A stretch of DNA of 64,000 nt, from assembly GCF_030013595.1 (NCBI RefSeq), contig NZ_CP122768.1; one strand, given 5' to 3'. Position 1 is the stretch's first letter, and every line of letters starts with the position of its first letter. The position numbers were made by a program, and so were the translations under genes. This DNA comes from Escherichia coli (GTDB lineage Bacteria; Pseudomonadota; Gammaproteobacteria; Enterobacterales; Enterobacteriaceae). The notes beneath the pieces were generated by a model. That model ran no database searches. It was not told where the DNA came from and saw nothing but the letters and a program-made list of their open reading frames with translations. Shown here piece by piece: positions 13,756 to 61,070 of the stretch.

Positions 13756-14028
13756 TTACCTCCAGATGCGTTGCTGGAATGTGCGGGACGGACGCGGCGG
13801 GCGTTCGGAATAAGGGAGCCTGACGTAGATTATCCAGTGATGGTAGTCGAGGCTAAGGGCTTTCTTAAACTCATACCCACGTCTGCGGTAGTTATGAATC
13901 AGCCATTCGGCCTGTTCTTCAGTGCAGGGATCGTGCTGATACCAGTCATATTTGAATGTGTGAGAACACCGCCCTTGCCTGCTGGCAGGGGCGGTATCAG
14001 AATTGTGATGTTTGGTATTGTGCGCCAT
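13756..14028 (-). CDS. Hypothetical nin-region protein
   Basis: ORF; likely start MAHNTKHH. Confidence 0.35.
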   Translation of the reverse strand: MAHNTKHHNSDTAPASRQGRCSHTFKYDWYQHDPCTEEQAEWLIHNYRRRGYEFKKALSLDYHHWIIYVRLPYSERPPRPSRTFQQRIWR

Positions 14029-14163
14029 CGGTTTTCTCTGCTGGCGCAGCAGGTGCCAGTTGTTCAAGCTGGCGTGCGGCAATATTGTCTCTGATTTCTG
14101 TTGTCGTCAACAGGCAACGTGCTATCATCGAATGGTGTTCTATCCTACTCCGTGAGGTTTACC

Positions 14164-14421
14164 ATGCGTACAACCCAACAATTCAGCATTACATTAACTA
14201 ACGAAATGGCTGACATGGTGCGCGCCCGTGTGGCTTCCGGTGCCTATGCTTCAGAAAGCGAGGTCATTCGTGAAGGGCTTCGCGCACTGAATGAGCGCGA
14301 TAAAGCAATCGAAGCGTGGTTAACGCATTCAGCCGCCCCCTCTCTTGATTCTATCCGCGAAACCCCAAACAACGGACGCTCCATTTCACAGGTTCGCGCC
14401 GCGATTCGATCCGGGAAGTAA
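14164..14421 (+). CDS. parD: ParD-family antitoxin (ribbon-helix-helix)
   Basis: 85 aa; MRTTQQFSITLTNEMADMVRARVASGAYASESEVIREGLRAL typical ParD; immediately upstream of a ParE-like gene. Confidence 0.8.
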   Translation: MRTTQQFSITLTNEMADMVRARVASGAYASESEVIREGLRALNERDKAIEAWLTHSAAPSLDSIRETPNNGRSISQVRAAIRSGK

Positions 14422-14426
14422 TCTGC

Positions 14427-14726
14427 ATGACATATGAAGTCATCATTACTCCTGAGGCCGAACAACAAATAATCAACCTGCACAGGTATATAACGGAGAA
14501 AGCAGGGAACGTCATTGCTGACAATTATGCCAATGCGCTTCTTGATTATCTTGATGGGTTTTCTACATTCCCGCATCGGGGCAATAAACGCGATGATATT
14601 CGCCAGGGGATGCGGGTAACTCATTTCCGCCACAGAACGATTATTGCTTTTGCCGTTGATAGCAGAAAAGTCTTTATTGTCGGTATCTATCATGGTGGGC
14701 AAAGTTATGAAACCGATTTCTTATAA
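14427..14726 (+). CDS. parE: ParE/RelE-family toxin
   Basis: 99 aa; starts 6 nt after parD stop; a hairpin terminator follows. Confidence 0.75.
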   Translation: MTYEVIITPEAEQQIINLHRYITEKAGNVIADNYANALLDYLDGFSTFPHRGNKRDDIRQGMRVTHFRHRTIIAFAVDSRKVFIVGIYHGGQSYETDFL

Positions 14727-14807
14727 ACTTTTACCCACATCATTCCGGTGTTAGAATTAACCGTCCGCCCCCTCTCTTACTGGCGGATTCGTAGGCTATA
14801 TAAATCA

Positions 14808-14845
14808 AAGATCCCGGCTCATGTTTGTGTCGGGATCTTTTTTCG
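14808..14845 (+). terminator. Rho-independent terminator after parDE
   Basis: gatcccgg..ccgggatc hairpin followed by TTTTTT. Confidence 0.6.
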
Positions 14846-14850
14846 GCGAT

Positions 14851-14934
14851 TTATCCCCAGCGGCAAATCGAATACACCACCAGCGCCACCGCCATCGCAA
14901 TTCCTACCGTTGTGAATGCTTCAGGCCAGGTCAT
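14851..14934 (-). CDS. Possible 27-aa hydrophobic peptide translationally coupled to the upstream gene
   Basis: ATG overlaps stop of the 114-aa gene (ATGA); peptide [27 protein letters not shown]. Below the ORF-track length cutoff, so speculative. Confidence 0.25.
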
Positions 14935-15275
14935 CGTAAAATATCCTCCACGCTTATCAGTCCGTTCCGCTCCAGATAACTCATCGCCTTATCCGGTAAT
15001 TTGCAGTCTGGCTTCGCTTTCCTCAGTTGCCAGGTTAACTGCTTTACCAGCATGGTTAACTCATCGACCAGACGCTGATATCCCACTGGTTTGTATTCAT
15101 GCAATTTACCGGCTGGCTCTGCTGCCAGCGATACCAGTGCGATTTCCAGAACAGCAATATCCATCTTATATGTGCGGATGATGTCATGGTCGATTGTGCC
15201 CGGTATGCACAGTCTCTGTGCTTCAATAGTCTCCTCTGCGTGAGCTATTAACTGCTCTCTGGTAAAAGTCGTCAT
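14931..15275 (-). CDS. Hypothetical phage protein
   Basis: 114 aa ORF overlapping the HNH gene stop by 4 nt. Confidence 0.4.
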
Positions 15276-58420: not shown

Positions 58421-58460
58421 CCGAATGGCGGCGCTATTGCCGCCATTCGGTTATTTTTTA
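58421..58460. terminator. Bidirectional terminator between ssuB and pepN
   Basis: ccgaatggcggc..gccgccattcgg hairpin followed by T-run. Confidence 0.7.
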
Positions 58461-61070
58461 AGCCAGTGCTTTGGTGATCTTCTCGTACAGATCGCCAGAG
58501 AGATTTTCCAGCCCTTTCAACTGCTCCAGCGCCGCGCGCATTTTCTCCTGACGTTTGGCATCGTAACGTTTCAGGCGAATCAGCGGTTCAATCAGACGTG
58601 AAGCCACCTGCGGGTTACGGCTGTTGAGGTCGGTAAGCATTTCCACCAGGAACTGGTAACCGCTGCCATCTTCAGCATGAAACGCTGCCGGGTTGCTGCC
58701 CGCAAATGCGCCAATCAACGAACGAATACGGTTCGGGTTGCTCATGGTAAATGAGCGATGCTGCAACAGGCCGCGCACCGTCTCCAGCACATTCGCCGCC
58801 GGGCTGGTGGCTTGCAGGATAAACCATTTATCCATCACCAGACCGTCCTGATGCCACTTGTCGTCGTACTCCTGCATCAGCGCGTCACGGCAAGGCAGCT
58901 GTGCGGCAACCGCCGCAGAAAGCGCCGCCAGCGCATCAGTCATATTGTTTGCTTCGTGGAACTGCTTGCTCACCAGCACATCAGCCAGATGCGTTTCACC
59001 AAAAGCGAGGAAGCGCAGGCAGGCATTTCGCAGAGTGCGTTTTGCAATATCGTCATGCTCAACACGGTACTCGCTCTGGTAATTCGCGTTGTAAATAGCC
59101 AGTAGCTCATCCGCCAGTTCAGTCGCCAGAGTACGAGTGAGTGCTTCGCGTACTTCAGCAATAGCAATCGGGTCGATGATATCGAACAGTTCTGCCATTT
59201 CATTGACGGAAGGCAGCGTCAGGATTTCTGCCGCCAGTGCCGGATCAATCTTCTCATCAAGCAGTACCGCGCGGAAAGCATCAGCCACATGCACCGGCAG
59301 AGACAGCGGCTGACCTTGCTGATGACGCGCGACGTTCAGCTTGATGTAGGTTGCCTGCAGGCTTTGCGCCGCATCCCAGCGGGAGAAATCATTACGCGCA
59401 TGGCGCATCAGGAAGGTCAGTTGCTGATCGCTCCACTTATATTCCAGTTTCACTGGCGCAGAGAATTCGCACAGCAGCGCAGGCACCGGCTGGAAGTAGA
59501 CATTATCAAAGACAAAGGTCTGTTCCGCCTGGGTGACGTTCAGCACCGAATTCACCGGGTGACCGCCTTTCTGCAACGGGATCACTTTGCCTTCGTTATC
59601 ATACAGTTCGATGGCAAACGGAATATGCAGCGGCTGTTTTTCTGCCTGATCCGGCGTAGCAGGCGTACGCTGGCTGATGGTCAGGGTGTACTGCTCGGTT
59701 TCCGGATTGTAGTCATCTTTGACGGTCACAACCGGCGTACCGGACTGGCTGTACCAACGGCGGAAATGGGAGAGATCGACATTTGACGCATCTTCCATTG
59801 CCTGAACAAAATCGTCGCAGGTTGCCGCGCTGCCATCATGGCGCTCGAAATAAAGCTGCATCCCTTTCTGGAAGTTTTCTTCGCCCAGCAGGGTGTGGAT
59901 CATGCGAATCACTTCCGCGCCCTTCTCGTAAACGGTCAGGGTGTAGAAGTTGTTCATCTCAATGACCATATCCGGGCGGATCGGGTGCGCCATCGGGCTG
60001 GCGTCTTCCGCAAACTGCAATCCGCGCATGGTGCGCACGTTGTTGATACGGTTTACCGCGCGGGAACCAAGGTCAGAGCTGAATTCCTGATCGCGGAAGA
60101 CGGTTAAACCTTCTTTCAGGCTGAGCTGGAACCAGTCGCGGCAGGTCACACGGTTACCGGTCCAGTTGTGGAAATATTCGTGACCAATAACACGCTCAAT
60201 ATCGAGGTAATCTTTATCGGTGGCGGTGTCGGTACGGGCCAGCACATATTTGGAGTTAAAGATATTCAGACCTTTATTCTCCATTGCGCCCATATTAAAG
60301 AAATCCACCGCGACGATCATATAGATGTCGAGGTCATACTCCAGGCCGAAGCGTTCTTCATCCCATTTCATGGAGTTTTTCAGCGAGGTCATCGCCCACG
60401 GCGCACGATCAAGGTTGCCGCGATCGACGTACAGCTCCAGCGCAACTTCGCGACCAGAACGCGTGGTGAAGGTGTCGCGCAGCACGTCGAAGTCGCCTGC
60501 CACCAGCGCAAACAGGTAGCACGGTTTAGGGAACGGGTCCTGCCACTGTACCCAGTGACGTCCGTTTTCCAGTTCGCCTTGCGCAACGCGGTTACCGTTG
60601 GAAAGAAGGAAGGGATATTTGGTTTTATCGGCAATAATTTTGGTGGTAAAACGCGCCAGCACGTCCGGGCGGTCGAGATAATACGTAATATGGCGGAAAC
60701 CTTCGGCTTCACACTGGGTGCAAAGCGCATCGCCTGACTGATAAAGCCCTTCCAGCGCGGTATTCGTCGCCGGGCTAATTTCATTAACGATCTTAAGCGT
60801 AAAACGCTCCGGCAAATTACTGATGACCAGTGCGCCCTCTTCTTCTTTCCAGGCGGTCCACGGCTCATCATTAATATGAACAGAAACCAGTTTAAGATCT
60901 TCGCCATCAAGACGAAGCGGAGCATCTGATGCACCATGACGGACAGCCTGGCTGACCGCGGTAACGACCGTCTTTTGCGCGTCCAGGTCAAAGGTCAAGT
61001 CAATATCAGTAATCTGGTAATCCGGCGCACGATAATCGTGACGGTATTTGGCTTGTGGCTGTTGAGTCAT
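58458..61070 (-). CDS. pepN: Aminopeptidase N
   Basis: 870 aa; HEYFHNWTGN zinc-binding motif. Confidence 0.97.
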   Translation of the reverse strand: MTQQPQAKYRHDYRAPDYQITDIDLTFDLDAQKTVVTAVSQAVRHGASDAPLRLDGEDLKLVSVHINDEPWTAWKEEEGALVISNLPERFTLKIVNEISPATNTALEGLYQSGDALCTQCEAEGFRHITYYLDRPDVLARFTTKIIADKTKYPFLLSNGNRVAQGELENGRHWVQWQDPFPKPCYLFALVAGDFDVLRDTFTTRSGREVALELYVDRGNLDRAPWAMTSLKNSMKWDEERFGLEYDLDIYMIVAVDFFNMGAMENKGLNIFNSKYVLARTDTATDKDYLDIERVIGHEYFHNWTGNRVTCRDWFQLSLKEGLTVFRDQEFSSDLGSRAVNRINNVRTMRGLQFAEDASPMAHPIRPDMVIEMNNFYTLTVYEKGAEVIRMIHTLLGEENFQKGMQLYFERHDGSAATCDDFVQAMEDASNVDLSHFRRWYSQSGTPVVTVKDDYNPETEQYTLTISQRTPATPDQAEKQPLHIPFAIELYDNEGKVIPLQKGGHPVNSVLNVTQAEQTFVFDNVYFQPVPALLCEFSAPVKLEYKWSDQQLTFLMRHARNDFSRWDAAQSLQATYIKLNVARHQQGQPLSLPVHVADAFRAVLLDEKIDPALAAEILTLPSVNEMAELFDIIDPIAIAEVREALTRTLATELADELLAIYNANYQSEYRVEHDDIAKRTLRNACLRFLAFGETHLADVLVSKQFHEANNMTDALAALSAAVAAQLPCRDALMQEYDDKWHQDGLVMDKWFILQATSPAANVLETVRGLLQHRSFTMSNPNRIRSLIGAFAGSNPAAFHAEDGSGYQFLVEMLTDLNSRNPQVASRLIEPLIRLKRYDAKRQEKMRAALEQLKGLENLSGDLYEKITKALA

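Follow-up and report, generated by a model that had tools for sequence, protein, structure and literature searches.

A conserved 27-codon reading frame in early operons of lambdoid phages and prophages: a predicted membrane microprotein gene

Introduction

Is a reading frame of only 27 codons in a lambdoid prophage a gene? The question is raised by a small open reading frame (ORF) in a 64,000-nt stretch of Escherichia coli DNA (NCBI RefSeq assembly GCF_030013595.1, contig NZ_CP122768.1; hereafter the window), situated directly behind a gene for a 114-aa protein. A sequence-only reading of the window had proposed that this frame specifies a hydrophobic peptide with a single transmembrane helix and that it is coupled to the upstream gene by an ATGA overlap. 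No strand was given at that time; the small ORF lies on the minus strand (Table 1). From frame conservation, substitution patterns and hydropathy we conclude that it is very probably a real, translated gene for a membrane microprotein. The explanation as a whole, in which a coding gene ends an early transcription unit, its product forms a predicted membrane helix, and a partner and mechanism are proposed, is in our judgement reasonably well favoured by the sequence comparisons. According to these comparisons, the small ORF is more aptly viewed as a single copy of a phage gene that is very widespread than as something peculiar to the window prophage.

Results and Discussion

The small ORF and its translation signals

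The ATG of the small ORF (14934-14932) and the TGA of the 114-aa ORF (14933-14931) form a true ATGA overlap, so that this part of the earlier proposal was borne out. On the minus strand, the sequence around the start reads ...gtGGAGGAtattttacgATGAcctgg..., and the Shine-Dalgarno (SD) sequence in the window is predicted to pair with the anti-SD sequence at -9.3 kcal/mol. For the encoded peptide, a Kyte-Doolittle maximum of 2.11 (19-residue window) and a grand average of hydropathy (GRAVY) of 1.09 predict one transmembrane helix, in agreement with what had been proposed. The peptide thus has the size and helix content of bacterial small membrane proteins (up to 50 aa, single predicted transmembrane helix). 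The open frame alone is weak evidence, because the chance of finding 27 open codons after any ATG is about 0.27, i.e. (61/64)^27. What takes the small ORF beyond chance is that frame, start, stop and ribosome-binding site are kept in hundreds of copies and in different contexts.

The small ORF follows at least four unrelated upstream C-terminal modules: the end type of the 114-aa gene in the window (80 copies), a DUF551 end ...HWMPLPEPPQEVNQ (48 copies), a coiled coil ...NDLKNIEQEVNR of the type seen in L0139 of phage 933W (20 copies) and an EaA end ...GWNACRAAMLKKKGMNQ (3 copies). The start overlaps the stop of the upstream gene, as ATGA or GTGA, in each of the 63 distinct upstream contexts. 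Nearly all of these contexts have a GGAGG-type SD sequence; the duplex with the anti-SD sequence amounts to about -9 to -13 kcal/mol in most of them and is weaker than -5 kcal/mol in four rare ones. The last four codons are common to three of the four modules because they form the ribosome-binding site of the small ORF (GGAGGTGAATCA-ATG). Folding of the start region gave no more structure than that of shuffled sequence (z = +0.3 to +1.1), and the SD site is therefore not hidden.

Homology between copies extends from the ribosome-binding site, which lies inside the upstream gene, exactly to the stop codon on the downstream side. Beyond the stop we found more than eight unrelated continuations, among them many hairpin terminators, a hok/sok promoter in about 45% of copies and a DUF4222 gene; one and the same upstream gene (100% identical) is joined via the small ORF to at least three different downstream contexts. 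The alignments show ORF, ATG, stop position and GGAGG site conserved as one unit behind at least four upstream gene ends. Copies reside in nin-like regions (this window; L221) as well as in the exo-xis region on the pL side, where the arrangement is bet-exo-...-Ea22-DUF551-[small ORF]-DUF4222-xis-int.

The proteins preceding the small ORF are extremely mosaic, ranging from 61 to 317 aa with module joints inside genes. About 64% of them share an N-terminal ...IALASLEAEPVAW motif, which is combined with different middle or C-terminal modules (DUF551, KLPDKAM..EDVLR, coiled coil, EaA).

Frame conservation and codon-level selection

Three samples of viral contigs were anchored on the first 23 nt of the ORF, on its last 23 nt, and on the upstream 114-aa protein. 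In the first sample (n = 124), every copy encodes 27 aa, or 25 aa owing to in-frame 6-nt deletions, except for two read-throughs and one copy cut by the end of its contig. The second (n = 171) contains three disrupted copies; the remainder is opened by ATG, or by GTG in three instances, and a few copies have in-frame 6-nt deletions. At each of the 79 informative loci of the third sample, the 114-aa-type upstream protein is followed by the small ORF, which is intact in 72, read through in one and frameshifted or truncated in seven. Length changes that preserve the frame comprise the 6-nt deletions and rare in-frame insertions or duplications. The deletions fall in a GCG/GTG-rich repeat (GCGATGGCGGTGGCGCTGGTGGTG), which may be prone to slippage and deletion.

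Among 94 distinct 84-nt versions, variation is concentrated at third codon positions. The ratio of nonsynonymous to synonymous polymorphism (pN/pS) is 0.24 in the ORF frame versus 1.16 and 1.56 in the two shifted sense frames; over both analyses that were made, it is 0.24-0.26 versus 1.16-1.97. The position of the stop is fixed and the codon itself varies (TAA in 78 versions, TGA in 16). In the versions compared, the substitutions show the codon pattern of purifying selection. Frame conservation in related prophages, which the sequence-only reading had named as a check on its proposal, thus turned out in favour of it: nearly all copies have 27 codons, and ATG or GTG, SD sequence and stop position are all kept. 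At the protein level, a profile of 28 variants has invariant M1, P4, A6, G11, A15, Y21 and W26 and nearly invariant A13 and A17; the search filters did not impose the invariance of G11 and A15.

The 84-nt block coincides exactly with a mosaic junction and is flanked by differing genes on its two sides, a position that recalls the boundary sequences proposed for lambdoid phages. One could thus regard it as conserved non-coding DNA, either a recombination "linker" or a cis-acting RNA, in which the frame is incidental. This is at odds with the third-position variation and frame-specific substitutions, with the predominance of frame-preserving length changes and the small minority of disrupted copies, with the conservation of start, stop and SD sequence, and with relatives detected at the protein level (E = 1e-5 to 1e-10). 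Neither is there unusual RNA structure at the start, and Rfam gave no match at E<=1 on either strand between positions 14000 and 16000, a result that leaves room for an RNA wholly inside the 84 nt. We consider the non-coding reading to be already largely refuted and give it only a very slim chance.

Many independent downstream contexts open with a hairpin terminator within about 10-15 nt past the stop. This would fit a role in which only translation of the frame matters, ribosomes being kept up to the terminator or the hok promoter so as to prevent Rho-dependent polarity or to modulate the hairpin. Such a role is very unlikely, since the peptide itself is under purifying selection (low pN/pS, invariant G11 and A15, conserved WPEAF), distant relatives keep the protein motif despite diverged DNA, and some contexts have just another gene in place of a terminator.

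Rare rearrangements (P0114, P0116 and P0016) have their breakpoint after residue 15 of the peptide: one joins a Hok C-terminus, one a RusA C-terminus, and one is a 45-nt tandem duplication. The sole "Hok" database match, P0114, is the deletion chimera of peptide residues 1-15 and the Hok C-terminus.

Counter-evidence and the question of strand

Several observations have to be set against a genuine gene. No curated family of Pfam, PHROGs or NCBIfam matched the peptide at threshold; only generic transmembrane matches below threshold, including PTR2, were obtained. The small ORF is absent from the annotation of the Prokaryotic Genome Annotation Pipeline (PGAP) in all RefSeq records examined. Full-text literature searches with MTWPEAF and MTWPEAFTT did not find the peptide sequence, nor is it present in the supplements of the Sakai small-gene paper based on ribosome profiling (Ribo-seq) and of "The Cryptic Bacterial Microproteome". 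Among the 79 loci anchored on near-identical upstream genes, seven (9%) carry frameshift or nonsense versions. The close family also seems narrow, being essentially confined to phages of Escherichia, Shigella and Salmonella, because a scan of one genome per species (~100,000 species, relaxed DNA pattern) gave two matches, one in an Escherichia sp. and one in a 369-bp "Acinetobacter" contig. Finally, the wobble-aligned antisense frame reaches a pN/pS of 0.25, so that pN/pS alone cannot assign the strand.

That antisense frame, a plus-strand ORF of 118 aa (Table 1), is open in 92 of the 94 variants and could in principle be the real gene. We tried this candidate and rejected it despite its equal pN/pS, as its ends are not conserved. 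A low antisense value is the expected shadow of a wobble-aligned frame over a real gene. The open stretch has neither a conserved start nor a conserved stop: one end varies from 59 nt inside the small ORF up to 376 nt past its 5' end (mostly 22-376 nt beyond), the other from -1 to 158 nt past its 3' end, and an antisense gene would need to cross four unrelated upstream modules. On the minus strand, by comparison, the 114-aa gene has strong PHROG support, start, SD sequence and stop are conserved in the sense frame only, and amino acid replacements are more conservative there (mean BLOSUM62 score -0.24 versus -0.71 antisense, p = 0.049). A gene on the opposite strand is therefore extremely improbable, and the shadow ORF serves as a caution against assigning strands by dN/dS alone.

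Some of the individual family tests deserve mention. KdpF (TIGR02115) scored 14.7 bits against a cut-off of 26.85 and DUF883_C (Pfam PF19029) 14 bits against 27; Hok/Gef (PF01848) gave no match at E<=1. A weak match was obtained to phrog_4612 (E = 0.019, 16.3 bits), in which residues 1-23 align with profile positions 33-54 of 57.

Distribution in genomes, phages and plasmids

Of 5426 complete E. coli genomes, 1635 (~30%) contain matches to a 103-nt query around the small ORF; the matching places number 3108, with up to seven per genome and 164 on plasmids. By tblastn we detected the small ORF in 93 phage records, including 933W, VT2-Sakai, Min27, Stx2 II, ArgO145 and the lytic Avunavirus Av-05. 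In 933W it is unannotated and stands directly after L0139, just before the hokW/sokW locus. Phage lambda has no WP[ED]A-type ORF in any of its six frames; published Ribo-seq of lambda is therefore uninformative on the small ORF.

In the virulent phage Av-05 (Vequintavirinae/Avunavirus; L211 2001-2084, also L003), an EaA-like gene is followed by a small ORF with 81% amino-acid identity whose changes are mostly synonymous or conservative. As judged from these two genes, a lytic phage has evidently acquired lambdoid "ea" genes.

The tblastn search also returned 181 plasmids of E. coli, Salmonella and other enterobacteria, mostly of ~95-100 kb and non-mobilisable, which look like phage-plasmids. 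For example, plasmid pIPCEC31_2 (L206, 97 kb) and about 180 similar plasmids of E. coli and Salmonella carry a diverged copy, which in L206 follows a DUF551 gene inside an Ea22 / PAPS-reductase early-gene block. The 369-bp contig from the species scan (JQCU01000559.1, L212), labelled Acinetobacter idrijaensis, is near-identical to this phage-plasmid DNA across the DUF551 end and the small ORF and is probably an assembly contamination.

Distant relatives and Ea22 fusions

For homology searches we used a profile built from the alignment of the 28 variants, headed by a 40-aa read-through variant. In a collection of 5.8 billion proteins, it matched only standalone proteins of 25-59 aa from E. coli, E. 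albertii, Shigella and Salmonella. Their entries read "hypothetical", "bacteriophage protein", "putative prophage protein" or, erroneously, "DUF551 domain-containing protein, partial". A cluster of exact sequences that seemed to link the peptide to 121-aa DUF551 proteins was discarded as an artefact: those proteins lack the peptide, and the link stems from the mislabelled partial entries.

An exhaustive search of 1.84 billion representatives yielded 57 proteins at E<=1e-3. Among them are clearly diverged relatives of 30-39 aa with the same pattern, e.g. MNITNWPEAFTYIGCAFAIAIIFYSMFRWG, MEISWPEAIMWIGIAFAAALAIYSIMRWGD, MTWPEAFRDVGYALAAAIMIWALLKYAIGKL and MLAQAMGWPDAFALVGGAFATAFIIYAVCKYA. The family motif can be written as WP[ED]AF-x2-[VI]G-x-A-x-A-x-A ... 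[YW] ... [RK], in which the aromatic residue stands near position 21 and the basic one follows the helix. Three distant relatives could be traced to phage-like gene arrays, and in one case the array, with DNA ligase and ThyX, resembles that of a lytic phage. Overlaps of 4 nt flank two of these relatives on either side; in the third, the overlap with the upstream gene amounts to 14 nt. The upstream protein of the L222 relative ends in ...LPAPP, reminiscent of the ...LPEPP end of DUF551 proteins; Pfam gave no support for this assignment, and we dropped it.

In P0125 (143 aa) and P0128 (206 aa), two diverged sequences on seven contigs, an Ea22 homologue is read in frame into the peptide (Table 1). 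The junction is ...DLPPLESNK-MSWPDAFAIAGVAMSIALIVFAICRWG, and the DNA confirms one open frame. The fusions contain the lambda Ea22 segment LETAKSKLNEQREYYEGVISDGSKRI, and their internal ATG is still preceded by GGAG. They have the order DUF4752 - fusion - DUF4222 - xis - int and belong to a different lambdoid lineage, in which the frame is therefore read as protein. To judge from their sequences, they hint at a functional link of the peptide with the upstream protein.

The fusions in this lineage would also agree with the idea that programmed -1 frameshifting just ahead of the ATGA extends the upstream protein by the peptide as a C-terminal transmembrane tail; indeed, relative to the upstream gene the small ORF occupies the -1 frame, and that frame is open for 4-8 codons upstream. 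We see little chance for this idea, as neither type of ribosome-binding site shows an X XXY YYZ slippery heptamer, no stimulatory RNA structure accompanies the site, and a tail would not need the conserved ATG or GTG and SD sequence.

Comparison with known systems

E. coli has a number of small inner-membrane proteins with a single helix, such as YohP (27 aa), KdpF (29 aa), MgtS (31 aa), CydX (37 aa) and AcrZ (49 aa). They consist of one helix with short polar ends, are often encoded at operon edges, are co-translated with larger partners, and bind larger membrane proteins. The predicted small-ORF peptide resembles them in having no more than 50 residues and one hydrophobic helix. It differs in being phage-borne, in belonging to early lytic operons and in having a conserved WPEAF motif of its own at the N-terminus; no membership by sequence was found. 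It is thus a new family within a well-known kind, small membrane proteins, and not mechanistically surprising.

With regard to its start, the small ORF resembles ATGA-coupled gene pairs: a 4-nt overlap occurs in all sampled contexts, an SD sequence inside the upstream gene in nearly all, and the coupling itself is nothing unusual. Huber et al. are said to have described in 2019 that such overlapping pairs are translationally coupled by termination-reinitiation. The start region of the small ORF differs from that of such pairs in that it is not sequestered in structure, so independent initiation is possible as well.

The C-tail anchors of ElaB, YqjD and YgaM (DUF883_C glycine zipper) offer another parallel, having a terminal helix, a zipper of small residues and a basic end. 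The fused Ea22::peptide proteins would match this design, whereas the helix considered here is normally the product of a separate 27-aa gene.

In most copies, the neighbourhood is that of the exo-xis or "ea" early proteins (Orf60a, Orf61, Orf63, Orf73, Ea8.5, Ea22), or the small ORF comes after L0139, as in 933W. A variable group of genes downstream, after ea22, has been described for Shiga toxin (Stx) phages (PMC8614690), and the small ORF belongs to this variable set. Unlike the other members, it encodes the sole predicted membrane protein, is absent from lambda and is not among the ORFs listed in the exo-xis papers; in those that we searched by term, a transmembrane ORF is not mentioned. 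In the window, its location also departs from that of the "ea" set, since it is placed not between exo and xis but in the nin-like region, with the replication genes on one side and Q on the other. The conserved intergenic families of small open reading frames (smORFs) of Enterobacteriaceae collected as "Entero67K" (PMC11188072) are likewise short, hydrophobic, unannotated and under purifying selection. They are strictly intergenic, whereas the small ORF overlaps its upstream gene, and the supplementary material searched for that study does not contain the peptide sequence.

A possible mode of action

Initiation would take place at the ATG overlapping the upstream TGA; ribosomes would either reinitiate there after termination or bind the accessible SD sequence directly, and the peptide would consequently be made together with the upstream "ea"-type protein. 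The product may insert into the inner membrane as one helix from about F7 to C24. Following the positive-inside rule, its acidic WPEAF end would be periplasmic and its basic R25-W-G end cytoplasmic; this orientation is proposed because every family member has a positive charge after the helix. We presume that the peptide acts by helix-helix packing through the small-residue face G11/A13/A15/A17 and that N-antiterminated transcripts from pL or pR give rise to it during lytic growth or following induction.

As to the partner, our best single guess, offered tentatively, is the co-translated upstream protein of the Ea22/DUF551/EaA families, to which the peptide could serve as a membrane anchor or partner. 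Our reasons are that it is linked to the small ORF at all 79 loci, that the two are coupled by a 4-nt overlap and that a natural fusion exists. A protein of the host's inner membrane has about the same likelihood. Two points speak against the upstream protein: the distant relatives follow unrelated upstream proteins, and in the fusions the Ea22 domain would have to stay cytoplasmic, which gives a topology opposite to that of the free peptide. It is conceivable, if rather doubtful, that the peptide is the detached anchor of a two-part early unit that recruits the mosaic Ea22/DUF551/EaA proteins to the inner membrane. This reading would agree with the linkage, the coupling and the fusions just named. 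The exo-xis region has been reported to influence lysogenisation and prophage induction (PMC3824215, PMC7093339). If the detached-anchor reading were true, the poorly understood exo-xis or "ea" region of Stx and other lambdoid phages would gain a membrane-bound step in the lysis-lysogeny decision and in induction.

The sequence-only reading had brought up a possible role as toxin or regulator, which the comparisons neither establish nor dismiss. Small hydrophobic membrane peptides, often encoded on prophages, are typical of type I toxins (Hok/Gef, TisB, DinQ, ShoB, Ldr, Ibs), and the size and hydrophobicity of the peptide match those of TisB, DinQ, ShoB and Hok-type peptides as generally known. 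A membrane-damaging, "kil"-type or type I toxin-like peptide would oligomerise and depolarise or permeabilise the inner membrane, thereby aiding takeover of the cell or killing it upon induction. The small-xxx-small face could drive the self-association that this requires. Many copies adjoin hokW/sokW-type loci, the fraction of sampled copies directly upstream of hok/sok being that given above, and the window copy adjoins parDE. On the other hand, these flanking toxin-antitoxin modules vary and are merely juxtaposed, and genomes tolerate up to seven copies. Translation of type I toxins is under tight repression, whereas the SD sequence here is strong, unstructured and accessible and the start is coupled to the upstream gene. 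We found no promoter of its own with a long, structured, translation-blocking leader, and, outside the 84 nt, no conserved linked gene for an antisense or divergent small RNA: the conserved DNA extends from the ribosome-binding site to the stop only, and the flanks differ between copies. With no match in Rfam or to Hok_Gef in addition, we consider a toxin of this kind unlikely. Nor does the location suggest a holin: holin genes lie in the lysis cassette next to those for endolysin and spanin, but the small ORF is found here with the replication genes on one side and Q on the other and, in other phages, in the exo-xis region.

In 933W (L209 2501-2950, record 58460-58909) and many other Stx phages, the hokW/mokW/sokW locus begins right after the stop of the small ORF. 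By eye, a hok promoter-like TAGAAT is seen about 35 nt downstream of this stop. Because hok follows immediately, read-through from pL would run into it.

Efficient expression of Shiga toxin requires prophage induction (PMC4195576), and an overlooked membrane component could matter for phenotypes of lysogenisation and induction. A gene that about 30% of complete E. coli genomes carry, and that also occurs in the reference Stx phages 933W, VT2-Sakai and Min27, has been missed by the RefSeq annotations examined and by the exo-xis literature; it would be a microprotein gene common in phages of pathogenic E. coli, in a region already tied to lysis-lysogeny behaviour. Where exo-xis constructs were made from phages that have the small ORF, it may have been removed or retained without notice. 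Apart from this, it provides a worked example of how ORFs below 30 codons can be validated by comparative genomics alone, and the WP[ED]AF-type motif could seed a family model for annotation pipelines.

Genomic setting in the window

The identical region in RefSeq has the gene order replisome organiser, DUF1627, DUF977, three small hypothetical/DUF4014 genes, HNH endonuclease and the 114-aa hypothetical protein; then come the unannotated site of the small ORF, a convergent ParE/ParD pair, DUF968, RusA and antiterminator Q. From this order, the small ORF closes a gene block that is transcribed towards Q in the nin-like region of a lambdoid prophage, and is thus the last gene of an early (delayed-early, pR/nin-side) transcription unit.

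The stem of a GC-rich hairpin terminator begins 11 nt past the stop of the small ORF. Its U-rich tail on the minus strand extends over 14807-14800, and the T-run at 14838-14843 on the plus strand serves the convergent parDE pair. The hairpin was seen by folding and was not called by the consensus terminator scanner, probably because its loop is longer than the 3-8 nt covered by the scanner.

Table 1. Positions of the small ORF, of associated features in the window and of the Ea22 fusions (window numbering unless a locus is given).
Feature	Position	Strand	Remarks
Small ORF	14851..14934	minus	27 codons plus TAA stop, ATG start; predicted single-pass membrane microprotein; from ORF list, conservation, pN/pS and hydropathy
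ATGA start/stop overlap with 114-aa gene	14931..14934	minus	translational coupling junction; from sequence reading
Shine-Dalgarno sequence GGAGGA	14944..14949	minus	9 nt before the ATG of the small ORF, within the last codons of the upstream gene
Upstream 114-aa gene	14931..15275	minus	phrog_660 C-terminal module, mosaic "ea"-type early protein; PHROG match 8e-43
Bidirectional hairpin terminator	14800..14843	both	stem 14808-14839; dG -20.7 kcal/mol, z = -3.2 by folding
Antisense "shadow" ORF	14825..15181	plus	118 aa, TTG start; wobble-aligned frame opposite small ORF and 114-aa gene
Ea22::peptide fusions	L216 4001-4432; L219 156-776		

Two observations on the neighbouring genes may be added. 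PGAP annotates a 43-aa hypothetical protein (WP_001342258.1) at 13997-14128 on the minus strand, overlapping the start of the next gene, although it leaves out the far better conserved 27-aa ORF. The ParD antitoxin / RelE-ParE toxin pair (14101-14726, plus strand), which converges on the operon of the small ORF, sits between the terminator of the small ORF and DUF968-RusA-Q like an inserted accessory gene (moron).

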